DNA from: Flavobacteriales bacterium
GTDB lineage: Bacteria; Bacteroidota; Bacteroidia; Flavobacteriales_D; JAUILH01
Direction of reading: 5' to 3'
DNA length: 64,000 nt
NCBI GenBank assembly: GCA_964230215.1
Contig: CAXRGQ010000006.1
Location: 174,106-238,105 of the forward strand
The notes beneath the pieces were generated by a model that worked only from the letters and a program-made list of their open reading frames with translations, had not been told where the DNA came from and did no database searches. Below are positions 27,828-42,970 of this stretch, in pieces. The position numbers and the translations under genes are program-made. Within the stretch, counting starts at the first letter, position 1. Each line of letters begins with the position of its first letter.

Positions 27828-27833
27828 AATTGT

Positions 27834-27960: not shown

Positions 27961-28229
27961 TGCGTTTTTATTTTTTCTTCGATTAATTTCTTCGCTATTA
28001 TTAGACAATGTTCACGACTTCCAATAACCCCAATCGTTTCGGTTTCAATTTTATAAAGTCTGTCCGCAATTTCTTTCTCTGTTTTATTGTGAATTAGTAA
28101 GGAGAAAATTTCTGGCACGTAACTTTGATACTCATCTCTGGGTGCAAAGTCATTCACTCCAATCGGGTCCCATTCGTTCCATAGGATTTCGTCAACAGAA
28201 TTATATAATTTTTTTTGCTCGCTCGTCAT
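27945..28229 (-). CDS. cassette ORF, 94 aa hypothetical (WDPIGV...DEY motif, immunity-protein-like)
   Basis: Overlaps the upstream ORF by 4 nt. Its stop codon lies inside site B (GGGTAAATCGC). Confidence 0.55.
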   Translation of the reverse strand: MTSEQKKLYNSVDEILWNEWDPIGVNDFAPRDEYQSYVPEIFSLLIHNKTEKEIADRLYKIETETIGVIGSREHCLIIAKKLIEEKIKTHHNNG

Positions 28230-28513
28230 TCTTTGTCTTCTTGCGATACAAATGGATATTCGGAAAAATAGACATCCATACCAATCATTCCCATTGTTTT
28301 CATTGATGCGGCGTTCAATACTCCACCGCCACCGTTTGCGTCTTTCCTTATGTCAAATCCAATGTCAGCTATATATTTACTTGGCTTTAATGTTTTCCCT
28401 TTATCCATCAGCCAAGTTTCAAGAGCATCAATTTGTGTAGGTAAATCCCATGCTTCATCACATAGCCATTCCAATTTTTCTCCTGAGTCTTCGATATAAA
28501 TATTTATTGGCAT
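28226..28513 (-). CDS. cassette ORF, 95 aa hypothetical
   Basis: The ATG lies 20 nt from the CCACAAC box of site C. Translationally coupled to the next ORF. Confidence 0.55.
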   Translation of the reverse strand: MPINIYIEDSGEKLEWLCDEAWDLPTQIDALETWLMDKGKTLKPSKYIADIGFDIRKDANGGGGVLNAASMKTMGMIGMDVYFSEYPFVSQEDKE

Positions 28514-28533
28514 TTCTCGGTTCTTTTAATGCA

Positions 28534-28660
28534 CCACAACGGGGCAGGGTAAAACGCGTGCCCCAAAACGTTTTGTTTATCTAAAAATACAAAATATAAT
28601 TTCAGCTACTAATTATACGTCTGAAGACGCGAGGGGTATGCGATTTACCCGTTGTTAGGC
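28534..28660 (-). repeat. attC-like site C (127 bp) with a canonical GTTAGGC core
   Basis: Reads CCACAAC-GGGGCAGGGTAAAACGCGTG-CCCC...GGGGTATGCGATTTACCC-GTT-GTTAGGC. It shares 23-nt and 20-nt identical arm segments with site B. Confidence 0.7.
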
Positions 28661-28841
28661 TTAGTTACATAAAAATCATTAAATTCATTTCTTTTGAAAA
28701 ATTATCGGATTACTACAAAAAATAAAAGGTAAAACAAGCGTTTGGCAAGCCATAGTAATTGCGTTTTTTATTGGATGCGCAATTTGGGCTTATTGGCAAG
28801 AAAGGGAATTAAAGGAAAATCATGTATATTGTATAGGGACG

Positions 28842-29087
28842 GTGATAAAAAAGTGGAGAATGGTGAGTGGTAGACAAGTGCGGGTTAAATTTTATTATCG
28901 TGGAAAGTGGCGAACCGCCTCCGAAAATCAGGGGAATCATAAATTAGAAATAGGGGATAGAGTTTATGTGAAAATTAACCCGGAAAATGAATACACCCGA
29001 ATAATGCATGAGTATATTGCTTGCGATAGCCTAGAAACGGGACAACAGCCAACAGAAGGTTGGAAAGAAATACCATGCTTAAAATAA
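28842..29087 (+). CDS. hypothetical protein (DUF3592-like: TM helix plus beta domain); start unresolved, possibly frameshifted
   Basis: The frame is open from 28698 and encodes a TM helix (WQAIVIAFFIGCAIWAYW), but it has no ATG, GTG or TTG before 28842. A TTG at 28694 opens a 12-codon frame that would join after a 1-nt shift in an A-run. Confidence 0.4.
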   Translation: MIKKWRMVSGRQVRVKFYYRGKWRTASENQGNHKLEIGDRVYVKINPENEYTRIMHEYIACDSLETGQQPTEGWKEIPCLK

Positions 29088-29089
29088 TA

Positions 29090-29578
29090 CTACCTTACGT
29101 TTATAGCTATAAGCCAGGAAATAAGACCTGACAAAAGAATTGTAGTAATCGCAAATGCTATAGGATACCTTGTTGCTAGGTTATCGTTGAGATTTAGATT
29201 ATTAATTTCTTTATCAATTTGTTCCCTAACTAGAGGTGCTATTTCTTTCTGAAATTTTAGCGCATCAAATTCAAGTTGCTGCTTTTCCTTGTTTTCTTTT
29301 AATTCTTGCTGTAGCTTTTTAACATGCAATAAGTAACCACCAAAATCAACTATGTCAATACCATGTTGAGTTATATAAATTTCGTTTTGATGTCTAGGTG
29401 TACCTTTTATTATTAATCGATCACTTATCATTTCTGTAATTAATGCATTTTTCTCAATGTCATTCATATTAATATCACACGCTTCAAAAACTTTGAGATA
29501 ATGCTTTGCGTCTGCACAGTCACGTAAGTAATTAAGTATTGCGTCTATATTTTTATGTTTTGAGCTATTCTCGGTCAT
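29090..29578 (-). CDS. cassette ORF, 162 aa, coiled-coil protein with a C-terminal TM anchor
   Basis: I moved the start to MTENSSKHK (ATG 29576-29578), 8 nt inside the GCCTAAC box. The track's 29665 start would read across the recombination-site-like sequence. Confidence 0.55.
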   Translation of the reverse strand: MTENSSKHKNIDAILNYLRDCADAKHYLKVFEACDINMNDIEKNALITEMISDRLIIKGTPRHQNEIYITQHGIDIVDFGGYLLHVKKLQQELKENKEKQQLEFDALKFQKEIAPLVREQIDKEINNLNLNDNLATRYPIAFAITTILLSGLISWLIAINVR

Positions 29579-29586
29579 AGAATTAA

Positions 29587-29636
29587 GCCTAACTACGGGA
29601 TAAACCCAATTAACAAATAAATCTACATATAAATCC
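29587..29636 (-). other. attI-like half-site 1 (R box, L box and direct repeats)
   Basis: GCCTAAC (complement of site C's GTTAGGC), then TAC, then GGGATAAACCC. The motif ATAAAYC occurs three times (29600, 29617, 29629). No partner arm is present. Confidence 0.5.
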
Positions 29637-29685
29637 ATCAACAAGCAAAAAAGAACTAATAGCATGATTTACAAATACATATGTA

Positions 29686-29872
29686 TTTACAAACGACTGT
29701 AAACGTCATTTAAATACTTATCTACCGACTAGTACTTTTCAACTCCCCCATCTTTGCACCGTCGATTGAAACAAAGCCGGCTTGTGACAAAAGACACCGT
29801 GCCTAATGTGCAGATAACTAATAACGAAAACATACATACACATTAGGAAATGTTAAACCTTAATTTTTTAAA
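29686..29872 (+). promoter_or_regulatory. conserved ssb leader/promoter region, copy 1
   Basis: Near-identical in both copies. It has a CATCTTTG box (TAnnTTTG-like), the palindrome AAGCCGGCTT (29773-29782), and a 9-bp hairpin CCTAATGTG (29802-29810) / CACATTAGG (29839-29847). Confidence 0.45.
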
Positions 29873-30205
29873 ATGAACAACTTAAGAAACAAAGTACAGT
29901 TAATCGGGAATGCGGGAATGGAACCTGAAATTAAAGATGTAAACGGAAGTAAATTGGCTAAACTATCCATTGCTACCAACGAAACATACACCAACAAATC
30001 AGGTGAACGTGTTACAGACACACAATGGCACAACATTGTTGCCTGGGGAAAGACAGCCGAGTTAATTGAACGTTTCGTTACAAAAGGTAAAGAAATAGCG
30101 ATTGAAGGCAAACTAAACACTCGCTCATACGAAGATCAAGATGGTAATAAACGTTATGTGACGGAGATTATCATGAATGATTTCTTGCTGTTGGGTGCTA
30201 AGTAA
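29873..30205 (+). CDS. ssb: single-stranded DNA-binding protein, short form (110 aa, no acidic C-terminal tip)
   Basis: OB-fold SSB pattern: NKVQLIGNAG..PE...LAKLSIATNE...GERVTDTQWHNIVAWGKTAELIERFVTKGKEIAIEGKLNTRSYEDQDG.KRYVTEI. Confidence 0.85.
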   Translation: MNNLRNKVQLIGNAGMEPEIKDVNGSKLAKLSIATNETYTNKSGERVTDTQWHNIVAWGKTAELIERFVTKGKEIAIEGKLNTRSYEDQDGNKRYVTEIIMNDFLLLGAK

Positions 30206-30238
30206 ATGGAGTAGCCCATATTTTCTCTCATAAACTTA

Positions 30239-30273
30239 AGTCCTGTTCTGAAATTTTCGAAGCAGGACTTTTA
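30239..30273 (+). terminator. rho-independent terminator of ssb copy 1
   Basis: AGTCCTGTTCTG...AGCAGGACT followed by TTTT. The stem is homologous to the copy-2 terminator. Confidence 0.7.
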
Positions 30274-30280
30274 TTGCATA

Positions 30281-30853
30281 TTAAAAGTCTTTTAAAACTA
30301 AGCCTTTGCCAGTGTAATCAACTAATAATTGCTTACCCTTCAATCCCATCCTCTCTAATTCTTCATCTTCTGGCGCAAAATGATGATTTATATTTAGGTA
30401 GATTTCGTTCAGTCCATCTGCATCAAAATCATGAACTACAAAAGCCGGTAAGTATTCTCCTATTTCATTTGAATGCTGTATTTCCTCTGGATAAGGGAAG
30501 TCCGTATAAATAATTGGGAACTCAATACGCTGAGCAACTGTGGACAAGCCGACTTCAAGGTGATAGTATGCATGAGCGCCACCATTACTGATAAAACATA
30601 TTGTGTCTTTTATACCATCCTCATCAAGATCCCACAAATCTGTATATTCATAATGCAAAAGGTCCACTGCCAAAGTCGAATCGTACACATAATGTGCGTA
30701 TTGTGAATTTGGGAGGTCTACAAACTGACTATCTTCAATTGAGTGTGCCTTTACAGTTGACGAATCTATACTTTCATTGCTTGCATGAACTTCTGGTTTT
30801 TTCTCAGAATTACACGCGATTGCAATGACTAGTATAGGGATATATTTCTTCAT
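30281..30853 (-). CDS. lipoprotein, hypothetical (D-x-D-x-DG calcium-binding-like motifs)
   Basis: Lipobox VIAIAC. Contains DLDEDGIKD and DFDADGLNE. Confidence 0.5.
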   Translation of the reverse strand: MKKYIPILVIAIACNSEKKPEVHASNESIDSSTVKAHSIEDSQFVDLPNSQYAHYVYDSTLAVDLLHYEYTDLWDLDEDGIKDTICFISNGGAHAYYHLEVGLSTVAQRIEFPIIYTDFPYPEEIQHSNEIGEYLPAFVVHDFDADGLNEIYLNINHHFAPEDEELERMGLKGKQLLVDYTGKGLVLKDF

Positions 30854-30915
30854 ACTAATGACTTTACAAATATATCATCTCATCAAATAAATATTGATAA
30901 GGTCGGCCTAGAAAC

Positions 30916-31332
30916 TCAATTTAGCCGTCTAAAGCCAATTGTCTGATTGGTTGTTTTAAGTAAGAAGTGGTCATGATCAACAAAGTTTATTTGACCAAAA
31001 ATAAACGTGTCTTTTTTAGCGCTTGACACCGAGAAAGTAGTCAAAGTGCTATCACGTATCATCCATTCGTAATAGTGTGAACTATCAATTTCAATAGGTA
31101 CTAAGTAGTTCTGCTCAAATATACCGTCCTTATGAAAGCTGAATACATAGCCATCCATTTCTGAATAATCAATTGATAAAAATGTAAATCCTTCTTTAGG
31201 GATGCCCTCAAAATTATTCTCAACAGAAACTAGATTCCAGCTACCCACAATATCGTTTGTTACGTTTTTCGTATCCTCCAGTGATGAACAGGCAGCCATC
31301 AAAATAATTGCTATGTAAATAAAGCTTTTCAT
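30916..31332 (-). CDS. lipoprotein, hypothetical (lipocalin-like size)
   Basis: I prefer the start at MKSFIYIAIILMAAC (lipobox). This removes the overlap with hipA. Confidence 0.5.
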   Translation of the reverse strand: MKSFIYIAIILMAACSSLEDTKNVTNDIVGSWNLVSVENNFEGIPKEGFTFLSIDYSEMDGYVFSFHKDGIFEQNYLVPIEIDSSHYYEWMIRDSTLTTFSVSSAKKDTFIFGQINFVDHDHFLLKTTNQTIGFRRLN

Positions 31333-31339
31333 ATCTGGA

Positions 31340-32653
31340 TTATTTAAATCTAGGAGCAATTAAGGTGTTTAAAATCAAATCCCTTAGTTCTTGTGACACA
31401 TTTGTCTTCGTGGCGTACTCTCTCCAGTTACACACCACTGATTTAATCTCTTCAATTATCTTTTCGCCCTTTTTTATGCTGTTATCTGAGGCAATTTTAA
31501 TTAAGTCTGAAGTATTAATGTCCTTGTGTTTCCCACAAATACTTAGCGTATGCTGACTTACCCAAACGTTTTTTGGATCGTACGAATAGCAGACATCATA
31601 GGCTGGCGCCAACTCCCATTTTCCATGTTGTTTCAACATGAATGAAAAGTTCTTGGTGTGGTCGTCATAATTAGTCGCCATCACATTAAACACCATTCTT
31701 CTGAACATCTGCTCGGCCTCTGGATAGGTCATTCTTAACATCCGCATAGTCTGAAATAGCTGCTCATAACTGTAGCCGTATAGGTTGTTGTAGTCGAAAT
31801 GTTGAATGCCGCAGAATGTCTGAATATGATGCTTATCATTATTCCCCTCCCTATCAAAACGTTTGGTCATAAAATGTGCCCTATCATTCTCCTCTAACAA
31901 TTTACTTTCCATCATTTCAATGCCACAGTCTCTAGCCATCAAGTAATAGGCATACTCTACTCTTCCGTAACCAGAACTAACACCGAATTGCGTATCACTT
32001 ACACCATCAAGTTTAATTAACCAGTGTTCGAATCCTTTGGGGACATTGCTCTGACCAGACCTTACTTCACCCGTTTTTTGATTATAAGCGATTACAGCTT
32101 TTGGCCTAGCACCGCCTGCAGAAGTACCAATAGTGAGTATCTCACGCATTGCCTTTTGCTCATCTTTATGCAGGTTGGTTTCGAACTTCTCTCTGTTCGA
32201 CAACATTTTGTGTGCTATGTCTACTAAGCTTTTAATTTCGATAGCAAACGTTCTTTCTTTAGGTTTTATCTGTGCAGGCTCAAATTCCAAAGCACCCATT
32301 CCCCTTGAGCCAATGAAACAAAGTTGTTCGACAGGGTTCATACTATTCGGTGCGCGACCTTCTTGTGCTAACCAGATATTTATCAATTGATTTCCATATT
32401 TATCTGGCAGTGCATCTGCCAATAAACCCGGAAGCCCTTTGAAAGTGGATGTCTCTTCCCCTTTCTGTTTTCTCAATTCCGGAAAACTGTATATGCGGTC
32501 TCCATTACTTATAGGCATTTTTAATGGAGATAGGTCAATGTCCTTTGCAAGAAACTTTTTATCAAATTGAAAACTGGCTAGCTGACGATTTTCGTCCCAG
32601 CGAGCGGCACCTACGAGTTGTCCCCAAATTTTTATTTCTACTACATCTACCAT
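31340..32653 (-). CDS. hipA: HipA-family serine/threonine kinase toxin (type II TA)
   Basis: 437 aa. N-terminal HipA-coupling region and a C-terminal kinase core with GGARPK and DDHTKNFSF. Confidence 0.85.
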   Translation of the reverse strand: MVDVVEIKIWGQLVGAARWDENRQLASFQFDKKFLAKDIDLSPLKMPISNGDRIYSFPELRKQKGEETSTFKGLPGLLADALPDKYGNQLINIWLAQEGRAPNSMNPVEQLCFIGSRGMGALEFEPAQIKPKERTFAIEIKSLVDIAHKMLSNREKFETNLHKDEQKAMREILTIGTSAGGARPKAVIAYNQKTGEVRSGQSNVPKGFEHWLIKLDGVSDTQFGVSSGYGRVEYAYYLMARDCGIEMMESKLLEENDRAHFMTKRFDREGNNDKHHIQTFCGIQHFDYNNLYGYSYEQLFQTMRMLRMTYPEAEQMFRRMVFNVMATNYDDHTKNFSFMLKQHGKWELAPAYDVCYSYDPKNVWVSQHTLSICGKHKDINTSDLIKIASDNSIKKGEKIIEEIKSVVCNWREYATKTNVSQELRDLILNTLIAPRFK

Positions 32654-32994
32654 TCGGATGCCTCATTAGATGAATCGCCTTTGCTGCTAGCTCTACTTCT
32701 TTTGTTTTTCTGAAGTTTGGCATATTCAATTGGACTTATTTCATCATTAACTTTAAAAGCGTCCATTATAAACAGTAGGTCTAACACTCTTAACACTTGA
32801 ATCAGACTCATCAAGTTCACCTTTTCACCACGCTCTAAAAGACTCAGTGTAGAACGGCTAATATTTGCAGCTTCAGCCACTTCATTTTGAGATTTGTTCT
32901 GATTTAAGCGGTGATGTTGGACAAATTTCCCTATGGTTTCAACGAGCGATTTATCACTCATCGAATACCAATCAATGTATGAATTATCATTCAT
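32647..32994 (-). CDS. XRE-family HTH antitoxin (HipB-like)
   Basis: Overlaps hipA by 8 nt. HTH segment KSQNEVAEAANISRSTLSLLERGE. Confidence 0.75.
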   Translation of the reverse strand: MNDNSYIDWYSMSDKSLVETIGKFVQHHRLNQNKSQNEVAEAANISRSTLSLLERGEKVNLMSLIQVLRVLDLLFIMDAFKVNDEISPIEYAKLQKNKRSRASSKGDSSNEASEW

Positions 32995-33013
32995 ATTACG
33001 CTTTTTATATTAT

Positions 33014-33023
33014 TAACGCGTTA
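33014..33023. promoter_or_regulatory. candidate operator palindrome upstream of the hipB-like gene
   Basis: Perfect 10-bp palindrome TAACGCGTTA, 20 nt upstream of the start codon. Confidence 0.3.
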
Positions 33024-33170
33024 TATATCATTCAAATATACACATAAGATTTCAGACACACAACACTTGATGAATGATTTATCACTCACTAACTTCAAAT
33101 TAAAAGCCTAGTGAATTGTTTTTCATTCAAAACAAAGACACATATATCTTGTTTGAACAAAAATATACAA

Positions 33171-33542
33171 CTACCTATGCTGATCAATCAGAATAGCATT
33201 GCCATCAGGGTCTTTAAGCACTATGCTCGCTGGTCCGTTAGTGCTTTCGTCTGCTCTGCTGTCCAGTACTATTCCTTGTGACTCAAGGTGCTTTTGAATA
33301 TCTCTTACATCCTCAAACGGGTCTACGTTTTGTGCACTCTGGTCCCAGCCTGGGTTAAAAGTGAGAATATTGCCTTCAAACATGCCTTGGAAAAGACCTA
33401 TAACGGTTTCTCCGTTTTTCATTATCAGGTAGTTTTGTTCCATGTTGCCTGCAAACATTTCGAATCCCAATTTCTCATAGAATTCCTTTGATGTTTGTAA
33501 GTCTTTTACGCTTAGACTGATTGAGTGTGCTCCCAGTTTCAT
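33171..33542 (-). CDS. VOC (glyoxalase/bleomycin-resistance) family protein
   Basis: 123 aa. [20 protein letters not shown] and DPDGNAILI are typical of the VOC fold. Confidence 0.75.
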
Positions 33543-33606
33543 GTTTTGTTAGTTTGATTTGATTGCTTTTTTAATATTAATCTTGCTTAATGATATTTGA
33601 CAAATT

Positions 33607-34260
33607 CTAATCCCGCACAAAAAATGTCTTAGAGATAATTTCTTGATAACTGTTATTCCTTTTACCATTTAAACGAAAAACGATAATATCATTATCACCT
33701 GGTAATACCAGATAACATGATTTAACTCTGTCAAGGCCAATGCATCCTTCACATGTTAGTGTTACCTCAGTGAATTCAGGATCATAAGCAGTAAAGATTT
33801 TATTTTCTTCGCTTCTAATGAGGGTGTCGCTTTCAGATTCGTTATAAATTCTATTAAGCGATGAATCAGGTGCAGCATTATAAATAAAATATCTGGTAGA
33901 GACTAACTGTCTATGTCCTGTATTTAGCGTGAATTGTAATTGATATGGTTTTTTGATTTCGGTCTTATCTGAAAGTAATTTAAACGGAAGTTCTATTTGT
34001 CCCAATTCCTCACTTGGAATTAAGTGTGTGCCTATACCATACACTGTCCCATATATCCCAACAAGATTTGCGTTAATCGTATACTGGGCAGTACTATCAA
34101 AATCTGCTGAGTCAATAGCATATTCAAATCCAACCTTAAATTTATCAGGTAATACTTCATCATTATTAACGGGCTGAGAAATTACCTCTAAGTATCCCTG
34201 TGCTTCACATGGTATCGCTAAAGCAAATAAGATGGAGCTGGTTATTATAAATCGAAACAT
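33607..34260 (-). CDS. secreted hypothetical protein, 217 aa
   Basis: Signal peptide (LFALAIPCEAQ). Confidence 0.5.
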   Translation of the reverse strand: MFRFIITSSILFALAIPCEAQGYLEVISQPVNNDEVLPDKFKVGFEYAIDSADFDSTAQYTINANLVGIYGTVYGIGTHLIPSEELGQIELPFKLLSDKTEIKKPYQLQFTLNTGHRQLVSTRYFIYNAAPDSSLNRIYNESESDTLIRSEENKIFTAYDPEFTEVTLTCEGCIGLDRVKSCYLVLPGDNDIIVFRLNGKRNNSYQEIISKTFFVRD

Positions 34261-34463
34261 TCAATTTTTATTTAATTTATTGGACTACAAAATACATTAT
34301 TCTAACGTCTATTTCCACTCTTATTAGACGCCATCTTCTTCTGTATTGTATCATTAGCGGTATACTGCCAATGCTCTTTCAATTTAAGTAATAATTCTCT
34401 GGCGTCATAATAATCACAGTAAGCGGCTAAGGGAAACTTTTTACAGGAAATTATATTCTGTGC

Positions 34464-35003
34464 TTAGAAACTTTGTGGCGCTTGAAGCTGTGACCTTATT
34501 ATTTGAACAAACTTATCATATTTCTCTGGTCCCAGTAGTTGCTTTGATATAATATCGAACAATTCATTATTTGCCAGATACAAGTATACATCATCACCAT
34601 TAATTGAATATGATCTTATGGCTGTCCATTTGGTTTCCGAATTATGATTTTCAGACACGTATTTAATTGTATTTGAGTCAAAGTAAAATGTATAAGCCAT
34701 ATCCATGGATTTATTTCGCTGGTCTAATTCTTTTAAAGATCTGTCCCTTACTAATTGAAAGCGAATGAGAAATACTAACAGATACAATACTGAAATGCCA
34801 ATACTAACACAACCTATTATCCATAGTATGCGAATCTTTAGAGCTAATCCTGATGCAATCAAAGCACAACACACTAAAGCCCCAAGCCAAACGGGCAACT
34901 TCTTTAATTCACGTTGCTGTTCATACTTGAAATACTTCTCAAATATCTGCCTAGTTCTTTCTTTATCATATATTATCCTTACTTCCTCCAAGTCTAAAAT
35001 CAT
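34464..35003 (-). CDS. YcxB-like membrane protein
   Basis: Two central TM helices followed by a C-terminal beta-rich domain. Confidence 0.45.
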   Translation of the reverse strand: MILDLEEVRIIYDKERTRQIFEKYFKYEQQRELKKLPVWLGALVCCALIASGLALKIRILWIIGCVSIGISVLYLLVFLIRFQLVRDRSLKELDQRNKSMDMAYTFYFDSNTIKYVSENHNSETKWTAIRSYSINGDDVYLYLANNELFDIISKQLLGPEKYDKFVQIIRSQLQAPQSF

Positions 35004-35085
35004 TTAAGTAAAGTGGTGCACATACAGGTATTTTATACGTTTTATGTTTAATAATTTAATATTTAGCACGTATCATATTCCTAAA

Positions 35086-35640
35086 CTATTGAATCAATCT
35101 TAAATCAGAAATATTAAGACTTAATACTACCAAACCTATTTTATTGAATTCTATTTGGGTCTCAGTAGATATTTTGGTGATTACCTTATTTAGGTTTTGT
35201 AAAATCTCTTCAGATTGCATTTTACTCAAAACCTCCCGTGACCTTCCGATAGAAATATCTTCAACAAGGTGAGTTATATCTGCACGTGAACAGCCAAGCA
35301 ACCTTTCCACAGCATTCATGGTATATTTGGGATCAGTCGAAATGGCTGCTTTAATTGTTGTTGCCATCCTAACACGTTTGTTATCTTCTGTGATATACAT
35401 AGCTGAGTTGATATCCACATGATATGGGGTTAAATCTAGAAAATCATATTCTTGAATGATAGGCCAAACAAAAGCTCTCCCCCCGTGAACAAGCTTATAT
35501 AACTCTCCTGTTTCAATCTTCCCGTATATAACCATTATTTTATCTGGAGGACACTTAATTAACCGTTTGAATAATACAACTATCCATAGAACTAGCATTA
35601 ATCCAAATGCCCCAAGAAAGATAAGAAGTGAGTCGTCCAT
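35086..35640 (-). CDS. SPFH/band-7 (flotillin N-terminal-like) domain membrane protein, short form
   Basis: N-terminal TM helix, then IKCPPDKIMVIYGK...GGRAFVWPIIQEYDFLDLTP. Only ~184 aa, lacking the flotillin coiled-coil. Confidence 0.55.
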   Translation of the reverse strand: MDDSLLIFLGAFGLMLVLWIVVLFKRLIKCPPDKIMVIYGKIETGELYKLVHGGRAFVWPIIQEYDFLDLTPYHVDINSAMYITEDNKRVRMATTIKAAISTDPKYTMNAVERLLGCSRADITHLVEDISIGRSREVLSKMQSEEILQNLNKVITKISTETQIEFNKIGLVVLSLNISDLRLIQ

Positions 35641-35691
35641 TGTTATTGTTTTAGGTAAGAGAGTTTGGTTTTCGTGATGTAAATCTTATCC

Positions 35692-36225
35692 TTAACGCCT
35701 TTTCCTTTTAGAAATCTTTTTAGGTTTATATTCAACTATTTCAAATCCGAGTTTATCACTAAGCTCCTTGATTTTACTTTTGGCGGCAGATAATGAATCA
35801 GCTTGTTGTATTACAAACTTGCTTAAATGATTGTCATTAAGTAAAACGATTGTAAACACCTGGTCACTAAACTGGCTTGGCAATGCTCCTCTCATGTTCA
35901 TGTTATAAGCAACATTGGTACTGGTTATTGCCAAATACTTGTATGGGTTTAAGTCTCTCCATTTACCCCATTTTAACCCAAGTGATGAAGAGAATTTGCG
36001 CAATTTCTTTTTCTCTAAGTCAATTTCAACGCCTTCATATGAGCTCAGAATAAATGCACCCGCTATAAAAGCTACAATACCTGCGATTGGTCTTGCAGAA
36101 GGACTAACCGCTATTTCTACTTTATCAGGTGTGGAGATTAATACAATACCAAATATTATAAGCAAAACAGCAACTACAATGAACATCACTGGGAAAGTCA
36201 AGCCGAAATTTTCTTTTATTCTCAT
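35692..36225 (-). CDS. membrane protein, hypothetical
   Basis: I prefer the start at MRIKENFG. Two TM helices, a soluble domain and a basic tail. Confidence 0.45.
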   Translation of the reverse strand: MRIKENFGLTFPVMFIVVAVLLIIFGIVLISTPDKVEIAVSPSARPIAGIVAFIAGAFILSSYEGVEIDLEKKKLRKFSSSLGLKWGKWRDLNPYKYLAITSTNVAYNMNMRGALPSQFSDQVFTIVLLNDNHLSKFVIQQADSLSAAKSKIKELSDKLGFEIVEYKPKKISKRKRR

Positions 36226-36281
36226 AATGATTTTCAAACAAGCCAAGTGGCATTGATTAAGAATGAATTATATCCGTTTTT

Positions 36282-36566
36282 TTAGTTACCACAGTTTTCT
36301 TGAGCTTTCAGGTATTCTTTCTCCGCCAGATCTTCAAGTTCTTGAATCTCATTTTCCTTCATCCCAGATTCTTTCGCATCTTCAATCACTTCTAGAATTC
36401 TATTCTCAGCTTCTACCATGCCCTGCTCATCCCTTTCGCACCAAGCTTGACCTTTATCCATTGCATATTCCTTAATTAGCTCTTTCGGTTTCTTGGAGTT
36501 ACATGAGGATATGACAATTCCTCCTGTAACAATTAATGCTTGTATTAATCTTAAACTGAATATCAT
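36282..36566 (-). CDS. small acidic lipoprotein
   Basis: I moved the start to MIFSLRLIQALIVTGGIVISSC (lipobox), 9 nt from site D. The track's N-terminal extension reads into the repeat. Confidence 0.5.
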   Translation of the reverse strand: MIFSLRLIQALIVTGGIVISSCNSKKPKELIKEYAMDKGQAWCERDEQGMVEAENRILEVIEDAKESGMKENEIQELEDLAEKEYLKAQENCGN

Positions 36567-36575
36567 ATTAAACAA

Positions 36576-36708
36576 TACTAACGGGGCAGGATATAGCGGA
36601 TGCCCCACAGGTTTAGTTTATCTAATATACGGATTATTATTTCGGGTAATTATTGTCTGTTTGGAGACCTAAGGGCACATGCAGTTTAATCATTGCTGCA
36701 TGTTAGTC
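36576..36708 (-). repeat. attC-like site D (133 bp, same family as B and C)
   Basis: TACTAAC-GGGGCAGGATATAGCGGATGCCCC. The central GTTTAGTTTATCTAATATAC...GTTTGGAGAC is shared with B. The site ends ...GGGCACATGCAGTTTAATCATTGCTGCAT-GTTAGTC. The hepT stop codon TAA sits inside the GACTAAC box. Confidence 0.65.
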
Positions 36709-37044
36709 ATCTAGAAACTTCTTTACTTCAGGTAATAACTTAGGCAGGTCTTTGGTTACAATGGCCCAAATTATTGCATCCGAAATTGTGTCATAACCAT
36801 GTATTATTCTATTTCTTGTATCCACAATTTTTCGTGCGTTTTCAATTGGGAAATCACTTTGGAGTTTTAGAATTCGATTTACTGCTTCTCCTATAATTTC
36901 AAGACTTCTCTCAATTGCTCGCTTAGTCTTTAAATCATTCTGGAATTCAAAATAATTCCTTTTTTCTGGCAGGAATGAGTTAATCTCTAGTATGGCGTCA
37001 TGAATATCAATTAACCAAACTTTAATTTCTTTCTCCATACACAA
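36703..37044 (-). CDS. hepT: HepT (DUF86) ribonuclease toxin
   Basis: R-x4-H-x-Y motif (RNRIIHGY). 113 aa. Overlaps mntA. Confidence 0.8.
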   Translation of the reverse strand: MCMEKEIKVWLIDIHDAILEINSFLPEKRNYFEFQNDLKTKRAIERSLEIIGEAVNRILKLQSDFPIENARKIVDTRNRIIHGYDTISDAIIWAIVTKDLPKLLPEVKKFLDD

Positions 37045-37330
37045 GAACTTTTGATTTATCTATTTCAGATTTTAAAAGCTGATTTCTGATAGCTCCATCC
37101 TCTAATAGATCAATCTTTCTATTAAGAAGTTTTTCCAGTTGGAATTTCAGATTAAAGTATTTTTCCGAATAAGAAATGGGATCACTATCCTCAATGGATA
37201 CAATAAGATCAATGTCGCTTTCGTCATTAAATCTATCAGTTGTTACTGAACCAAAAGCGAATAATGTAGACACCCTATTACTAGAGCATAACTCCTTAAT
37301 TTGGGCAATATATTTATCCAAATATGCCAT
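37022..37330 (-). CDS. mntA: MntA nucleotidyltransferase antitoxin
   Basis: GSVTTDRFNDESDIDLIV (GS...DxD). I moved the start to MAYLDKYIAQ. The track's extension to 37447 reads through site E. Confidence 0.75.
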   Translation of the reverse strand: MAYLDKYIAQIKELCSSNRVSTLFAFGSVTTDRFNDESDIDLIVSIEDSDPISYSEKYFNLKFQLEKLLNRKIDLLEDGAIRNQLLKSEIDKSKVLVYGERN

Positions 37331-37388
37331 CCTCATCCAAAGATACGAATAGTAAGGTAAAGTAGTTTCAGTCCTATTGGTTAATGTG

Positions 37389-37455
37389 ATGCAACGGTCC
37401 GTGTATGTTGTCGTAGCATCCCAAAGGGTGCTATGCAATATACACATTGTTGTGT
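37389..37455 (-). repeat. attC-like site E (67-bp short hairpin type)
   Basis: ATGCAAC-GGTCC-GTGTAT-GT-TG-TCG-TAGCA [loop TCCCAAAGGG] TGCTA-TG-CA-AT-ATACAC-ATT-GTTGTGT. It is an imperfect palindrome with bulges and AAC/GTT ends. Confidence 0.6.
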
Positions 37456-37584
37456 TTTCGTGCTTTATTTAATTCTTTTTCAGCGGTGGTAAAGCCATAC
37501 TCTTTTACAATTTTTGGTTATAGCGTTGGCTGGTGCGAATTGCAAATGTGTATGGTTTTAAGCGTTGGGTTGATTTCTGAGTGT

Positions 37585-37610
37585 TACTTATAGTCTTTGA
37601 TTTATAGTCC
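37585..37610 (+). promoter_or_regulatory. tandem C-boxes (controller-protein operator)
   Basis: TACTTATAGTC-TTTGA-TTTATAGTC matches the GACTnnnAGTC x2 architecture of R-M controller operators. It lies ~23 nt upstream of the C-gene start. Confidence 0.6.
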
Positions 37611-37632
37611 ACATTTCCTCAAATTTGCAACT

Positions 37633-37869
37633 GTGGAAATAAAATCAAAAATAGGAGCTCGGATCAAAGAATTGAGGGATGATAAGCAAATGTCTCAAAA
37701 AGATTTAGCTTATGCTTCTGATTTAGACCGCAGTTACATTGCAAGTGTTGAAAATGGTCAAAGAAATATATCAATTGTCAATATTGAAAAAATTGCTGTT
37801 GCACTTGGAGTTACATTAAAAGATTTTTTTAGGAATGACAAATTTGATAACGATACAACAAGCAGTTGA
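37633..37869 (+). CDS. R-M controller (C) protein, XRE-family HTH
   Basis: HTH segment MSQKDLAYASDLDRSYIASVENGQRNIS. I prefer GTG 37633 (78 aa, close to the C-boxes). Overlaps the next gene by 35 nt. Confidence 0.7.
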   Translation: MEIKSKIGARIKELRDDKQMSQKDLAYASDLDRSYIASVENGQRNISIVNIEKIAVALGVTLKDFFRNDKFDNDTTSS

Positions 37870-38644
37870 TGGATTTAAAGAACTTATAGAAACTTCAATT
37901 GTTGAAGGTGGAATTAAAGCAAAAGAAGCAATTATTAGGTCATCACGACCAATTAACTTTATTCACGAGGCTGTCAAAGCCGATTTTATTAGAAAAAGAA
38001 TTTCTCCTGATAGAATCCATCCACCTCTTGGAGAATCAAAACCTGAACTTAAATTAGCTGGTTTTATTAAACAGAAACATCAAGATGTTTGCGTTGCACC
38101 TGAAGGATATGTTCCAGAATCTGAAACAATGACTGAAGGGATTTTAAGAGAAGCAACTGATTATTATGGTAAAGATTATACAGAACGTACAATTTCTGTA
38201 AACATTAGAAGTCAAATGAGTTCTCTTGCTAAAAACTTTGACACACTTTATGAAAGAACTATTGCCGAAGCTCAAAACCTGCACGTTAGATGTCAGAAAA
38301 TGGTGCTTGGAGAAGTTTATATGATTCCTGTAAAAGAATATGATGCGTCTGTAATGGATGAAAAAAGAGTTGAATTTATTGACCGAATAGGCGCAGTTGA
38401 GAAATATATCAAATCATTCCAAGCAATTAACGGAAGACCTAATCATGAACGAGAAGATTACAAGTATGAACGAGTTTGCTTGCTGCTTGTAGACTTTCAA
38501 CAAGCACCTGCAAAGATTTATAGTACAAATCAGGAACTTTATGATGATGGACTTTTAGATGAAGCTTCCGATGCCAGTATCGAAGAGCTTTCTTGGGAAA
38601 CATTTACGGATTCTATTCTAAATTCATATAAGAATAGATTCTAA
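37835..38644 (+). CDS. putative restriction endonuclease subunit 1 (269 aa)
   Basis: Lies between the C gene and the methyltransferase. Paralog of the next ORF. Shared blocks: AGFIK.K.QD, GKDYTE, VN(I/V)RSQMSS, RC.KMVLGE, EDYKYER.CL.L.DF. Confidence 0.55.
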   Translation: MTNLITIQQAVDGFKELIETSIVEGGIKAKEAIIRSSRPINFIHEAVKADFIRKRISPDRIHPPLGESKPELKLAGFIKQKHQDVCVAPEGYVPESETMTEGILREATDYYGKDYTERTISVNIRSQMSSLAKNFDTLYERTIAEAQNLHVRCQKMVLGEVYMIPVKEYDASVMDEKRVEFIDRIGAVEKYIKSFQAINGRPNHEREDYKYERVCLLLVDFQQAPAKIYSTNQELYDDGLLDEASDASIEELSWETFTDSILNSYKNRF

Positions 38645-39597
38645 TGGCTAAAAGCAAAATTTTAAGTAAAAGAAAATCTGCTCAACTCGAGAGAGTTAAG
38701 GCTACCGCCCATCATAATATCGTTAATGCAACACCACAAAATATATTGCAGGTTGCTTGCGATAATTTCAAATTTGTATTTGAACAAGCAGTTAGAATTG
38801 GAGGTGTTAAAGGAAAACAAAGTTTAACGACTTCAAGCAAGCACATTAACTTGTTTCATGAGGTGGTGAAATCAGAATTAATACGTAATGGAGTTAGAGC
38901 AGATTTGGTTTTTCCATCACAATATAATTCTACTGGTGAAATAAATTTTGCAGGATTTATTAAAGCAAAAAAGCAAGATATTTCGGCAGTTCCATCAGCT
39001 TTCATCAATAATGAAACCCCTGAAACCATAACAGTTGGTATGATGACAGGGGAAACAGACCCATTTGGGAAAGATTATACTGAAAATTCTCTTGTTGTAA
39101 ATGTGCGAAGTCAAATGAGTAGTATTGGGAAGAACAACGATACTATTGTGGAAAGAGCTTTTGCTGAAACTCTTAATCTTCATATGAGATGTCCGAAAAT
39201 GGTATTAGGTGAATTTTTTATTCTTCCAATAACTGGTTTTAACATGGATGAAGTGAAAAAACATAACCCAGCTTATGAAAGCATAATTACTACAAAAGTT
39301 AATAGTAGAAGTAAAACAACCGCTGAATCAATTGAGAAAACGATTAATACCTATGCTTCTATAAACAACAGAAACATTAGTAATGGCGAAGATTATAAAT
39401 ACGAGAGATTGTGTTTAATCTTGGCAGATTTTAGTCAAAGCCCAGTAAAAATATATAGAAATGATGCTGATTTAATTTCGGATAACTTGTTACCACCAAA
39501 CACTACAGCAACTTTAAATGGTTTAGGTTATGATAGTTTTATTTCAGATTTACTGGCTATTTATTCGACAAGGTTTGGTACAGGTAAGTTTAGTTGA
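38644..39597 (+). CDS. putative restriction endonuclease subunit 2 (317 aa, paralog)
   Basis: Its ATG overlaps the subunit-1 stop. Roughly 35-40% identity to subunit 1 by eye. Confidence 0.55.
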   Translation: MAKSKILSKRKSAQLERVKATAHHNIVNATPQNILQVACDNFKFVFEQAVRIGGVKGKQSLTTSSKHINLFHEVVKSELIRNGVRADLVFPSQYNSTGEINFAGFIKAKKQDISAVPSAFINNETPETITVGMMTGETDPFGKDYTENSLVVNVRSQMSSIGKNNDTIVERAFAETLNLHMRCPKMVLGEFFILPITGFNMDEVKKHNPAYESIITTKVNSRSKTTAESIEKTINTYASINNRNISNGEDYKYERLCLILADFSQSPVKIYRNDADLISDNLLPPNTTATLNGLGYDSFISDLLAIYSTRFGTGKFS

Positions 39598-41438
39598 TAT
39601 TTTTCAACTAAAAATTCGTCAATCTCTATTTTGTCATTAAGACTTTTTAGTAGCTCAATTTCATTTTGAGTGAAATTTGGAATACTAAACTTTTCAATGA
39701 AGTTCTTTTGATAGCAAGGGAAACCGCCTTGAATAGAAACACTCGTGTTACTTACATAATAGTCCATTACAATAGAGTTCAATATTTTTTGAACAACCAA
39801 AATATTTTCTTCTTTTGACATTGGATGAGTTACATCATCAAATAACATTGCCTTATTTGAATGATCTCTATCAAAATAAATTCCGTAACCGTTTGTATAA
39901 TAAGCATCTTCCTCTTGCACAAATAAAAATCTTGGGTGTTTACTAAATGTTGGATTCAATAATTTTTTACCAAATCTTGTAATTCCTTGTGTTCTTCCCC
40001 AGGCATAAAATGGAGTAAATATTTTTTTTCCTTTTCCTCTTCCTTCTAATTTCTCCTTTTCAGAAAGAAGGTATTCGTAGCATTTCGGATATATTATTTT
40101 GAATTCATCCTCCAAAATTGGAACTGCATTTTTCGAGTCTGTTTGATAAGGAGTAATAATTCTTAAAGTGTTGTTTTCAATATCTTTTTGATTTTTAAAT
40201 TGAGATATTTTGTAAACTGGTTTTGTGATTTCTTTTTCTATTAAAAATGTTCCGTTTTCTGTGCTTTTAGTTAGATAACCATTTTTTTGGTTTGCAGAAT
40301 CTATAAAAAAGACTTCATCTTTTAAGGTTGCAATTCCAACAGCAATATTGAATAATTGTTTTATTGGAGTTCCAATATTTTCAATGATTTTGATATTTTC
40401 TTGTTCTTGGGTTTTAAGTAAACGCCATTTATTTACATTGAGGTTTTCTAGATAGTTTGGCGAACCATTTGCAGATATTAAAAAGTTTGCACAAGTCTGT
40501 TCATCTTTGATTTTATCGAATAGAATAGAATCGTTTTTCTTCTTGTCCAAGAATGTAATTGCGGTATAAGTTTGAGCGTCAAAAACCTTTTTATGCCTAA
40601 AATCTACAATTCGTGTAACGCATTTATTTTGCAGAAAATATTGACGAAGCGATAAACCTGCCAGTGATGTAAAGTAATTGTTTGGCGTTATATAGCCTAG
40701 CTTTCCTTCTTTTTCTAAAAGTTTATGCCCCAATTCAAAAAAAGCAAAATATAAATTGAAAGTTCCGTTTTCAATACTTTTCCAATTGTTTATTAAATAA
40801 TGCCTGTTTTCATCACTTAAATCTTGAAACTTGACATATGGTGGATTCCCAACAATAATTTCAAATTTAGTTGACCAATCAGCTTTTAAGCTATCTTGAT
40901 TGAAGATATTAAAGTCAGATTCTTCTATTATCTCATTTTTTAGAAGTCCATAGAGTGATAAAATTATTTTTGAGCGTTTTACATTGTAGTCCAATATATC
41001 AGATCCATAAATATTTTCTCGGATAGTTGCCTTGATACTTTTATTAAAAGTCTTTTGGTAATATTCAGCCAAGCCAATTAAAAATGCCCCACAACCACAG
41101 CTTGGGTCTAAGCATTTGTCATTTTCTTTTGGTGATACTTCATTGATAATAAAATCAACAACGTATGTTGGTGTAAAAAATGCTCCATTAACTTTTCTGT
41201 CGTTTTTAGGAATTAAAAGTTCAAGATAATTCTCTAATAGTTTTAAATCCTTAATCTCAAGAGTTGAAACAAGTAAGTAGATTTCAGACTCTGGTTTAAA
41301 GTCCATTAATATTTCCGAAATTATTGGACTTTTTGTTGAAGCTAAATCATTGTTTTGAAGAAAAGAATAAATGAGATGTTTCTCAACAAGGTTAATCTCG
41401 TGAGAGTTAAGTAATTCATTTATTACACTTTTTTTCAT
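39561..41438 (-). CDS. N6-adenine DNA methyltransferase (Eco57I/TaqI-like gamma class), 625 aa
   Basis: Motif I LDPSCGCGAFL, motif IV VGNPPYV, and a long C-terminal target-recognition region. Convergent with the nuclease genes. Confidence 0.8.
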   Translation of the reverse strand: MKKSVINELLNSHEINLVEKHLIYSFLQNNDLASTKSPIISEILMDFKPESEIYLLVSTLEIKDLKLLENYLELLIPKNDRKVNGAFFTPTYVVDFIINEVSPKENDKCLDPSCGCGAFLIGLAEYYQKTFNKSIKATIRENIYGSDILDYNVKRSKIILSLYGLLKNEIIEESDFNIFNQDSLKADWSTKFEIIVGNPPYVKFQDLSDENRHYLINNWKSIENGTFNLYFAFFELGHKLLEKEGKLGYITPNNYFTSLAGLSLRQYFLQNKCVTRIVDFRHKKVFDAQTYTAITFLDKKKNDSILFDKIKDEQTCANFLISANGSPNYLENLNVNKWRLLKTQEQENIKIIENIGTPIKQLFNIAVGIATLKDEVFFIDSANQKNGYLTKSTENGTFLIEKEITKPVYKISQFKNQKDIENNTLRIITPYQTDSKNAVPILEDEFKIIYPKCYEYLLSEKEKLEGRGKGKKIFTPFYAWGRTQGITRFGKKLLNPTFSKHPRFLFVQEEDAYYTNGYGIYFDRDHSNKAMLFDDVTHPMSKEENILVVQKILNSIVMDYYVSNTSVSIQGGFPCYQKNFIEKFSIPNFTQNEIELLKSLNDKIEIDEFLVEKYQLNLPVPNLVE

Positions 41439-41601
41439 TCTTCTTTCTGTTGACTATAAGTAACAAAATTATGGTTTTTATCCGAGCTATCCAAATTGTA
41501 GAGTTGGGAAAATTTTAGCTCTTTTGGTTTTTTCAGCATTGGGAAAGATCGTGGGCAAAAACCAAATGTGCTAAATGTGCGGCTGGATTTTTTTGCATGA
41601 A

Positions 41602-41651
41602 ACACAACTACTGGGATAAACCCAATTACCACATAAATCTAATCAAAATCC
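41602..41651 (-). other. attI-like half-site 2
   Basis: ACACAAC (complement of site E's GTTGTGT), then TACT, then GGGATAAACCC. ATAAACC is at 41616, ATAAATC at 41633 and CAAAATC at 41644. The first ~33 nt are ~90% identical to half-site 1. Confidence 0.5.
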
Positions 41652-41700
41652 TATCAAGACACAAAATTCATTAAAAATCTATCTTTCAATAATATATCCA

Positions 41701-41888
41701 TTTACAAACGACTGTAAACGTCATTTAAATACTTATCTACCGACTAGTACTTTTCCACTCCCCCATCTTTGCACCGTCGATTGAAACAAAGCCGGCTTGT
41801 GACAAAAGACACTGTGCCTAATGTGCAGAATATTAATAACGAAAACATACATACACATTAGGAAATGTTAAACATTAATTTTTATAAA
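41701..41888 (+). promoter_or_regulatory. conserved ssb leader/promoter region, copy 2
   Basis: Same elements as copy 1. The hairpin is CCTAATGTG (41817-41825) / CACATTAGG (41854-41862), and the substitutions between copies fall in its loop. Confidence 0.45.
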
Positions 41889-42221
41889 ATGAACAACTTA
41901 AGAAACAAAGTACAGTTAATCGGGAATGCGGGAATGGAACCTGAAATTAAAGATGTAAACGGAAGTAAATTGGCTAAACTATCCATTGCTACCAACGAAA
42001 CCTACACCAACAAATCAGGTGAACGTGTTACAGACACACAATGGCACAACATTGTTGCCTGGGGAAAGACAGCCGAATTAATCGAACGTTTCGTAACTAA
42101 AGGCAAAGAAATGGCTATTGAAGGTAAACTAAACACTCGCTCATACGAAGATCAAGATGGTAAGAAACGTTATGTGACGGAAATTATCATGAACGATTTC
42201 TTGCTGTTGGGTGCTAAGTAA
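41889..42221 (+). CDS. ssb: single-stranded DNA-binding protein, short form (110 aa), second copy
   Basis: Start set by alignment with copy 1 (MNNLRNK). Only two aa differ (I>M, N>K) against ~12 nt differences. Confidence 0.85.
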   Translation: MNNLRNKVQLIGNAGMEPEIKDVNGSKLAKLSIATNETYTNKSGERVTDTQWHNIVAWGKTAELIERFVTKGKEMAIEGKLNTRSYEDQDGKKRYVTEIIMNDFLLLGAK

Positions 42222-42286
42222 TTAGCCCAAACTGTTAATACTTTGTTGATATTCAGCACAGTAATAAATAACAATTCTTTAATTCA

Positions 42287-42322
42287 AGTCCTGTTCTGTA
42301 TTATCAGAGCAGGACTTTTTTT
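42287..42322 (+). terminator. rho-independent terminator of ssb copy 2
   Basis: 12-bp stem AGTCCTGTTCTG / CAGAGCAGGACT followed by TTTTTTT. Confidence 0.8.
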
Positions 42323-42970
42323 ATGTATTTTAGTTCTGTGATAGATTTACCTAAACAAATCCATAAGTATATTTCAAGCGATGGCTTACCAGGTGAATCT
42401 GCTCATAAACACTTAATACCGGGAAACCGCCCCAGCGCTAAACACATCCAACAAGACGGAAACATTAAAGCTAAGCGCTCTGCGGTACTCATCCTACTCT
42501 ACCCCAAAGCGGGCGAATGGCACAATGTACTCATCAAACGGCCTGTGTATCCAGGGACACATTCTGGTCAGGTTAGCTTTCCAGGCGGAAAAGTTGAGAA
42601 ACAAGATCCCACAACTAGCGCGACAGCCCTGCGTGAAGCCAACGAAGAAATTGGTGTAGAAATTCAGGACATCACCATCATAGATGAACTTACAGATATC
42701 TATATTCCGCCAAGTAATTTCTTAGTCCACCCCTACCTTGCATGTATAGATTATACACCGGACTTTATTCCCGACAATCATGAGGTAGCCAGCATCATCG
42801 AGTATGAGGTAATGAATCTCACGGATCCTAATCTGCTTAAGAAAAAAGACATCACATTCGCCAATGGCTTTACCATGAATACGCCCTACTTTGATATTCA
42901 TGAACATACCGTTTGGGGGGCCACTGGCATTATGCTTAGCGAACTGAAAGAGATTCTGAAAGCTTTTTAA
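42323..42970 (+). CDS. NUDIX hydrolase (CoA pyrophosphatase-like)
   Basis: Nudix box GGKVEKQDPTTSATALREANEEIGV. Confidence 0.8.
   Translation: MYFSSVIDLPKQIHKYISSDGLPGESAHKHLIPGNRPSAKHIQQDGNIKAKRSAVLILLYPKAGEWHNVLIKRPVYPGTHSGQVSFPGGKVEKQDPTTSATALREANEEIGVEIQDITIIDELTDIYIPPSNFLVHPYLACIDYTPDFIPDNHEVASIIEYEVMNLTDPNLLKKKDITFANGFTMNTPYFDIHEHTVWGATGIMLSELKEILKAF

Follow-up and report, generated by a model that had tools for sequence, protein, structure and literature searches.

Two copies of a short ssb unit bracket a defence-gene array in an insertion hotspot of a Flavobacteriales bacterium

The described systems that come closest to the locus considered here are the sedentary chromosomal integrons and the clusters of attC sites lacking an integrase (CALINs), the defence and flexible-island hotspots flanked by core genes, the segmental duplications of core genes in tandem, and the target-duplicating elements of the Campbell model. 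The locus lies in a stretch of 64,000 nucleotides (nt) from a Flavobacteriales bacterium (NCBI GenBank assembly GCA_964230215.1, contig CAXRGQ010000006.1, positions 174,106 to 238,105 of the forward strand), which will be called the window and whose own numbering is used throughout. In this window, two direct repeats, each comprising a complete transcription unit of a short gene for a single-stranded DNA-binding protein (ssb), bracket 11.3 kb of accessory genes that include restriction-modification (R-M) and toxin-antitoxin functions. Among the systems just named, integrons are reported to be nearly absent from Bacteroidetes (PMC9024848).

The locus is a combination of an island hotspot, or CALIN-like array, with the segmental duplication of a core gene. 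As to how the second unit arose, we infer, and consider probable on balance, a lineage-fixed segmental duplication of the whole ssb unit (also called the platform) by recombination between platform alleles, inside an integron-like but integrase-less hotspot and with no self-mobile element. If this conservative reading holds, the locus is a clean, population-supported core-gene duplication embedded in an island of defence and toxin-antitoxin genes. The main weight of the finding, however, rests on the family-wide hotspot and its precise junction rather than on the duplication itself, and the locus is a concrete, testable place to ask how marine Bacteroidota capture and express accessory genes.

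The duplicated ssb unit

A repeat search, together with MAFFT alignment, places the direct repeat between 29592–30273 and 41606–42322, at a spacing of 12,015–12,016 nt. The repeat search returned blocks of 300 nt (96% identity) and 205 nt (93% identity), plus weaker flanking blocks, which MAFFT merged into one unit. With relatives as guides, the unit is limited on the left by an AAC at 29592 and 41606, and on the right by the end of the terminator at about 30273 and 42322. A first-pass annotation, made by a model from the letters alone, had described the repeats as 29581–30273 and 41596–42322, so that the repeat itself stands and its left limits have been refined. The parts of the two units are as follows.

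29592–30273, plus strand: repeat unit A, with junction element, operator and promoter, 5' untranslated region (5'UTR), ssbA and terminator
41606–42322, plus strand: repeat unit B, the resident copy, with the NUDIX gene directly after it
29686–30205, plus strand: high-identity core of unit A
41701–42221, plus strand: high-identity core of unit B
29685–29705, plus strand: operator-like direct repeats ATTTACAAACG ACTGTAAACG, kept upstream of ssb across genera (41700–41720 in copy B)
29749–29757, plus strand: CATCTTTGC, a Bacteroidetes -7-like box (TAnnTTTG type) with a putative role in the ssb promoter (41764–41772 in copy B)
29873–30205, plus strand: ssbA, 110 amino acids (aa), OB fold only, without C-terminal acidic tail (PF00436, 1e-29; TIGR00621)
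30238–30273, plus strand: ssbA terminator hairpin, with a T-run weaker than that of copy B
41889–42221, plus strand: ssbB, 110 aa, with an orthologue-supported start at 41889
42286–42322, plus strand: ssbB terminator hairpin and T-run

Within the 520-nt core, units A and B differ by 18 substitutions and one 1-nt indel (96.35% identity), close to the roughly 20 positions and single indel that had been counted by hand, and the longest perfect run is 117 nt (29869–29985, unit A numbering). On the left, the junction-proximal 94 nt are only about 69% identical, apart from a conserved 36-nt element of the form AACTAC(N)GGGATAAACCCAATTAMCAMATAAATCTA. On the right, the zone from the stop codon to the terminator is about 66% identical and holds a 33-nt indel, while the stems of the terminator hairpin are kept, as the earlier description had it. 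For this 3' region of unit A (64–66% identity, 33-nt deletion) no matching allele is known.

The two-copy arrangement is real. Both copies lie on one 677-kb contig (GCA_041252235.1), ssbA with the cargo up to the methyltransferase (MTase) gene is present also on a separate 28-kb contig of GCA_964216795.1, and the junction between the ssbA terminator and a 190-aa gene (30273/30274), which is unique, non-repeated sequence, was found in 10 loci of independent assemblies and samples; both junction types were recovered from sample SRR28144572. The first-pass annotation had named an assembly artefact as a danger; such an artefact, or a chimera in which two strains that occur together each contribute a single ssb, is suggested by the fragmentation of several assemblies, which break at the repeat, and by strain-level variation at the locus. 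Short-read contigs that enter from the 190-aa gene or from NUDIX all break off 87 nt inside the 3' end of ssb, where the stretch shared by A and B exceeds the assembler word length. Against an artefact stand the two contigs, the recurrence of the junction, and the 3.6% difference between the copies, which is not that of a collapsed or duplicated read artefact; this explanation is thus extremely improbable.

Selection on the two genes was assessed by comparing them with each other and with orthologue pairs. Between ssbA and ssbB, dN is 0.0077 and dS 0.161, giving an omega of 0.048, similar to the 0.02–0.04 of orthologue pairs, a figure that by itself cannot show selection at work once both copies were in the same genome. 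The 12 nucleotide differences in the gene, 10 of them synonymous, change two amino acids (I>M and N>K), exactly as first counted, and the probability of at most 2 non-synonymous changes among 12 is about 1e-5 when the non-synonymous site fraction is assumed to be 0.78. Both copies have kept the operator repeats, the -7-like box and the 5'UTR. Judged by these substitutions, the comparison shows divergence of A and B under strong purifying selection, with both copies intact, and so bears out the early view that neither is a decaying duplicate.

The two units are sisters, with 18 differences in 520 nt against the 41–58 that separate them from the related loci L110 and L006 (related loci are cited by number), and when changes are polarised by L006, about 9 derived changes fall in A and about 7 in B. 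L115 holds a mosaic allele (1013–1946) at the canonical ssb-NUDIX locus, with one ssb and next to an AAA-ATPase-like gene. The junction region of this allele is of A type, with a single difference over 94 nt (99%), its ssb coding sequence is 6% divergent from ssbA, and its 3' region is B-like. It follows that recombination in the conserved core carries junction-region alleles from one lineage to another. Gene conversion in L005 was also considered and set aside, since a single A-like nucleotide polymorphism is too little to call.

The product is recognisably an SSB (PF00436, E = 1e-29; TIGR00621, 3e-34), and its residues 6–107 align to the OB domains of solved SSBs. The canonical bacterial SSB has a DDDIPF-like acidic C-terminal tip. 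This feature of the replisome SSB, a disordered linker with an acidic tip, is absent here, as the 110-residue chain closes with ...NDFLLLGAK, three residues past the OB domain. In unit B, the 1-nt insertion brings an upstream ATG at 41865 in frame (41865–41891 region) and yields a 118-aa open reading frame (ORF) that some gene callers report; the orthologues indicate that the true ssbB start is at 41889. The short ssb is a core gene of Flavobacteriaceae with homologues in the thousands, and in 80 loci from GTDB species-representative genomes of many genera the SSB is 63–72% identical. Extra copies recur in the family: Salinimicrobium nanhaiense (L046, 9639–10682) has three tandem short-ssb paralogues, and a Flavobacterium metagenome-assembled genome (L078, 9613–10324) has two.

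The region upstream of the gene, which had been described as a leader, is likewise conserved. Over about 180 nt upstream of ssb, genus after genus carries two or three phased TTACAAACG direct repeats (2–3 copies, 10–11 nt period, about 100–190 nt upstream of ssb in loci L008–L087) and a nearly invariant CATCTTTGC, with a 5'UTR that is longer in the window's genus than in other genera. Because of this conservation, the leader is best regarded as the ordinary regulatory region, that is the operator and promoter, of this ssb. Rfam has no family for the leader or for the 129-nt repeats described below (the window was searched at the gathering threshold and 27.3–30.3 kb at an E-value threshold); tRNA-His alone was found. 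An SOS operator was considered and rejected, as the leader lacks the published Bacteroidetes LexA motifs, GGA-N5-TCC or CTAA-N5-TTAG (PMC8565304), and the TTACAAACG repeats were assigned to some other regulator. The zinc-ribbon protein encoded divergently from ssb is a candidate for a regulator acting on these operator-like repeats.

The gap between ssb and the zinc-ribbon gene

The surroundings of the two units are best described from the conserved genes at either border, listed here with the two variable arrays between them.

22198–22557, minus strand: 119-aa zinc-ribbon gene, divergent neighbour of ssb family-wide and left border of the hotspot
22558–29591, minus strand: array A, variable genes between the zinc-ribbon gene and unit A, with gene-level presence and absence between strains
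30274–41605, minus strand: array B, the 11.3-kb bracketed segment, with mostly leftward genes
42323–42970, plus strand: NUDIX gene, conserved right flank of the resident ssb

The 119-aa protein has an N-terminal CxxC...CxxxC zinc ribbon and no match in Pfam or NCBIfam. Of 82 related loci, 50 have a homologue of its gene upstream of ssb, at a distance of 162 to 9,357 nt, and in the remaining 32 none was seen within the fetched flank. The genes that fill this gap are strongly biased in orientation, with 82 of 95 gap ORFs (at least 80 aa; 32 loci from other genera) on the strand of the zinc-ribbon gene. In 20 of 28 loci the first of them begins 158–273 nt from the ssb ATG, so close that it adjoins the regulatory region. 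Content varies over short distances: gaps in Winogradskyella range from 178 nt to 7.1 kb and congeners differ in what they hold, Salegentibacter species show nested gains adjoining ssb, and a strain 94.5% identical to the window in the left core is without the 207-aa gene and has an extra DUF1801 ORF with an attC-like element. The gap between the zinc-ribbon gene and the short ssb is thus an orientation-biased insertion hotspot in many Flavobacteriaceae genera, of which no description was found in the full-text literature searched. In compact genomes, a leftward TAnnTTTG box lies beside the operator, in position to drive the zinc-ribbon gene, much as the Pc promoter in the platform of an integron drives the cassettes.

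The same comparison tells the two units apart. The order ssb-NUDIX is kept in L003, L005, L006, L007, L110–L113, L115 and L116, and every close relative has NUDIX, AHSA1 and further genes after ssbB; because this context is conserved in relatives, unit B is the resident copy, and unit A an extra copy within a variable array of leftward genes. Relatives with a single platform are L110–L113, L116, L115 and L006/L007. In L110, for example, whose SSB is 96% identical, only 1.2 kb, with a lone lipoprotein gene, separate the single ssb from the zinc-ribbon gene, as against 19.3 kb (22558–41888) from the zinc-ribbon gene to ssbB in the window, with unit A inside. Since relatives carry one unit, two units are the derived state, which answers the question of one platform or two posed by the first-pass annotation. 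The refuting case that it named, relatives that uniformly carry two copies in an old and stable arrangement, is nearly reached: at least 10 independent assemblies of the window's own lineage show the same stable arrangement.

At the left edge of the unit, a junction recurs that is precise to the nucleotide within this genus cluster. The elements are given below as read on the minus strand, with a slash at the junction and the first gene beyond it.

29592–29627, plus strand: junction element of unit A, 36 nt, ...GGGTTTATCCCGTAGTT/AGGC; first gene a 162-aa ORF
41606–41642, plus strand: junction element of unit B, ...GGGTTTATCCCAGTAGTT/GTGT (in the comparison of loci, ...CCCAGTAGTT/GTGT); first gene the 54-aa ORF and MTase
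L110: ...CCCTGTAGTT/GGCA; first gene a lipoprotein gene
L115: ...CCCGTAGTT/GGGC; first gene the AAA-ATPase-like gene
L006: ...CTATAGTT/GATA; first gene a DUF2971 gene, diverged element

Four unrelated gene sets, those of the two window units, L110 and L115, thus meet the unit at one nucleotide, ...GTAGTT/, and L006 has ...TATAGTT/. The edge that had been called a half-site is therefore a real junction that recurs across loci. The start codon follows 7–22 nt past the junction in four of the five loci, and more than 100 nt past it in L115. An AACTAC/GTAGTT motif shows no enrichment at gene borders beyond the two platforms, and a search for the junction element in public collections brought up no viral contig and a single contig from JGI, which was already known. 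The ssb unit was also considered as a cassette with its own complete attC, and this was rejected, there being no partner arm in the leader or near 30274.

Such a junction invites comparison with the attI site of integrons, and the array also holds attC-like palindromes, which score as follows with the covariance model R1.

27393–27511, minus strand: degenerate attC-like element, 35 bits, E = 1.6e-5
27832–27960, minus strand: attC-like 129-nt imperfect palindrome, 148 bits
28532–28660, minus strand: attC-like element, 130 bits
36574–36701, minus strand: attC-like element inside array B, 121 bits

All four copies of the 129-nt palindrome in the window are on the minus strand and within the array. 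Each follows an ORF, and the next ORF starts 13–25 nt past the terminal GTT. The first three units of array A consist of one or more ORFs plus a palindrome. One of these palindrome-bounded units, at 27945–28513 on the minus strand, holds two small ORFs (95 and 94 aa), which overlap and may be an unannotated toxin-antitoxin-like pair. In Winogradskyella poriferorum (L034), the same gap has its own palindrome family (6810–6940, 7657–7835 and 8346–8525), different in sequence and alike in architecture, with an ACAAC/GTTGT box, an inner stem of 7–9 bp and a 6-nt 3' bulge before the GTT, its copies being at differing stages of decay. True attC sites are imperfect palindromes of the form R''-L''...L'-R', with extrahelical bases, behind each cassette; the likeness of the four window elements and the three of L034 to them is one of general architecture. 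The DUF1801 ORF and its palindrome are present or absent together between strains, and short-read contigs of related samples break at the 129-nt elements.

Two readings build on these elements. In the first, the short-ssb promoter/operator region would act in both directions as an integrase-less, integron-like capture platform, with insertion at a fixed nucleotide in one orientation, between ssb and the zinc-ribbon gene, expression driven by the platform, some of the genes captured through attC-like sites by a recombinase acting in trans, and a platform that can itself be duplicated to give two independently headed arrays; we offer this reading tentatively, as less likely than not. In the second, which is the main rival explanation of the locus and rather unlikely, the locus would be an integron-like site-specific system, in which the junction element is attI-like, the 129-nt palindromes are attC, capture takes place at G/TT beside the ssb promoter region by a recombinase encoded elsewhere, and the second platform came from site-specific integration of a platform-bearing circle. 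The second reading draws on the series GTAGTT/ followed by AGGC, GTGT, GGCA and GGGC (with GTTAGGC in unit A, which we take to be the canonical integron core site), on the ORF-plus-palindrome units and their counterpart in L034, on the joint gain or loss of the DUF1801 ORF and palindrome, on the confinement of R1 copies to the array and to the minus strand, and on the strong orientation bias. On the other side, a complete integron has intI beside its array, and no recombinase domain was found by Pfam in about 60 of about 75 predicted window ORFs, with the whole repeat and cargo region covered; a tblastn search of about 120 related loci with approximate sequences of IntI1 and XerD gave a single match, in L061, itself unrelated and bearing no relation to array size. 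Most array genes are without any palindrome, with four attC-like elements in 19 kb, and a generic scan for AAC plus stem, then stem, bulge and GTT gave 2 sites in the window against 1.5–4.5 in shuffled sequence. Across 80 genera loci, this generic scan gave 23 upstream and 12 downstream matches, 6 of them from L034 alone, an unconvincing family-wide enrichment. Within the palindrome family, RNAalifold returned no consensus structure for the 129-nt repeats, and pair counting gave 84% pairing with no covariation beyond shuffles. No att-like site is present where the ssbA terminator meets the 190-aa gene, the conserved 36 nt may have another role, as a promoter or 5' leader, and the reported near absence of integrons from the phylum counts against the reading as well. 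Of the suggestion in the first-pass annotation that the platform was duplicated and then captured cassettes independently, the attC-like elements support a part, whereas their small number leaves most genes unaccounted for.

Two further features of the neighbourhood may be mentioned. The window's 352-aa gene (22675–23733) is cut in L110 (8507–8698) to a 63-aa N-terminal fragment that ends at the start of a short CTAAC...GTTGGC element. Farther left, at 2597–6514 on the minus strand, four tandem paralogous genes of 312–343 aa are linked by the repeat families D4 and D5, and the two of them that were scanned (2597–3535 and 5483–6514) have no Pfam match.

Origin of the second unit

The content of the bracketed segment bears directly on how the second unit arose. 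Its recognisable genes are listed first.

31340–32994, minus strand: hipA (31340–32653) and a hipB-like helix-turn-helix (HTH) gene (32647–32994)
33171–33542: glyoxalase
34464–35003: YcxB
35086–35640: SPFH
36703–37447, minus strand: toxin-antitoxin pair of HepT (36703–37038) and MntA (37022–37447)
37597–41599: type II R-M module, with controller protein (C-protein; 37597–37869, plus), two restriction endonucleases (REases; 37835–38644 and 38644–39597, plus), MTase (39561–41438, minus) and a 54-aa ORF (41435–41599, minus)

PADLOC identifies a type II R-M system with a controller (MTase_II, 5e-135; REase_II PDLC03558, 1e-83 and 6e-61; Control_protein, 3e-24). The two adjacent REase paralogues, 40% identical and both of PDLC03558, stand with the C-protein and a convergent Eco57I-type MTase, which suggests that they form a heterodimeric type II enzyme. 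The toxin-antitoxin assignments rest on HipA_C (4e-53) and Couple_hipA beside an HTH_3 gene for HipBA, and on HepT-like (3e-22) beside Polbeta/NTP_transf_2 for HepT/MntA; in both pairs the two genes are neighbours and overlap.

Such content is typical of plasmid stability and defence, and the first-pass annotation had listed, among possible origins, Campbell-type integration of a circular element carrying its own platform. In this explanation an autonomous circle, a plasmid or an excised island, with its own ssb, R-M, HepT/MntA and HipBA genes, integrated by homologous recombination into the chromosomal ssb, and the repeat on either side of the cargo fits that geometry. Flavobacteriaceae plasmids do carry short SSB genes: that of Aquimarina sp. 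TRL1 (NZ_CP053591.1, L118, 63.6 kb) has one at 10592–10921, 63% identical, among many small genes of unknown function. The plasmid ssb is, however, without the chromosomal operator or leader, whereas unit A retains, at 96% identity, the complete operator and 5'UTR of the chromosomal gene. Moreover, the ORFs of 30274–41605, all of which were scanned, include no replication, partition, transfer, or integrase/excisionase genes, and the cargo has no match among plasmids and phages. L006 too has the glyoxalase plus 217-aa block, 89% identical in nucleotides, upstream of its one ssb, so that part of the cargo is old array content and not an imported element. Together with the want of a recombinase domain in the scanned ORFs and of an att-like site at 30273/30274, these observations speak against the proposal, and we regard it as improbable.

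We return, then, to segmental duplication through recombination between platform alleles. The operator and promoter of ssb are present in both units, probably together with a promoter that reads leftward. As either unit adjoins a leftward gene set of its own, at the same nucleotide, each would stand at the head of a separate sub-array, and the 11.3 kb of cargo would be the ssbB-proximal one, made up of defence and toxin-antitoxin genes. The second unit may have arisen in either of two forms. Unequal crossover between platform alleles could have produced a tandem duplication, followed by gene turnover; alternatively, the array-plus-ssb of a related strain may have been imported, with homology as the anchor on one side and the other end joined illegitimately just past the terminator. 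The 520-nt core, with its 117-nt perfect run, is a predicted substrate for RecA-mediated deletion or circularisation of the cargo, and the repeats could in this way act as a switch, one recombination event removing the R-M, HepT/MntA and HipBA genes in a single step. A deletion or circle junction of the cargo was looked for and none was found.

Several points weigh against this explanation. No donor configuration was found. The zone from stop codon to terminator in unit A, having no matching allele, is not what simple import of a canonical allele predicts, while tandem duplication requires that every gene of the left copy was exchanged, right to the junction nucleotide. No exact TAnnTTTG motif is present on the minus strand of the window's two platforms, where a leftward promoter is supposed. 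The exact junction in four unrelated gene sets, together with the attC-like elements, hints at a site-specific mechanism that the explanation leaves out, and, as the view taken here is of 64 kb of genome, a recombinase could act in trans.

Comparison with described systems

The locus resembles sedentary chromosomal integrons and CALINs in its co-oriented array of small, mostly unknown genes, with toxin-antitoxin and R-M genes among them, read away from a fixed platform; in the structured AAC...GTT imperfect palindromes of about 129 nt after some ORFs, with a junction that matches GTTRRRY; and in the presence or absence of genes between strains, with short-read contigs that break at repeats. 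It differs from integrons in having no intI beside the array, the divergent position that is normally that of intI being taken by ssb, and from integrons and CALINs alike in its mere four recognisable sites in 19 kb, in the duplication of the platform, and in a host phylum where integrons are reported to be almost absent (PMC9024848).

With the defence and flexible-island hotspots flanked by core genes, it shares a pair of conserved core genes with a variable content in between, in which R-M and toxin-antitoxin systems are enriched, and flanks where homologous recombination apparently exchanges alleles, the L115 mosaic being an example. Unlike them, it has a precise common junction nucleotide, an extreme strand bias, conservation across many genera, and one of the flanking core genes duplicated inside.

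Like a segmental, or tandem, duplication of a core gene, it has direct repeats of a complete transcription unit with both copies under purifying selection, and extra ssb copies are known from L046 and L078; unlike such a duplication, its copies stand 11.3 kb of unrelated accessory genes apart, and the edges of the repeat are functional borders, namely the junction element and the end of the terminator. Finally, direct repeats flanking a segment rich in addiction and defence genes, which recombination between the repeats could excise, recall the target-duplicating elements of the Campbell model, from which the locus is set apart by the lack of an integrase or excisionase and by a repeat that is a whole gene with its promoter, 3.6% diverged, instead of a short att core or the 3' end of a gene.

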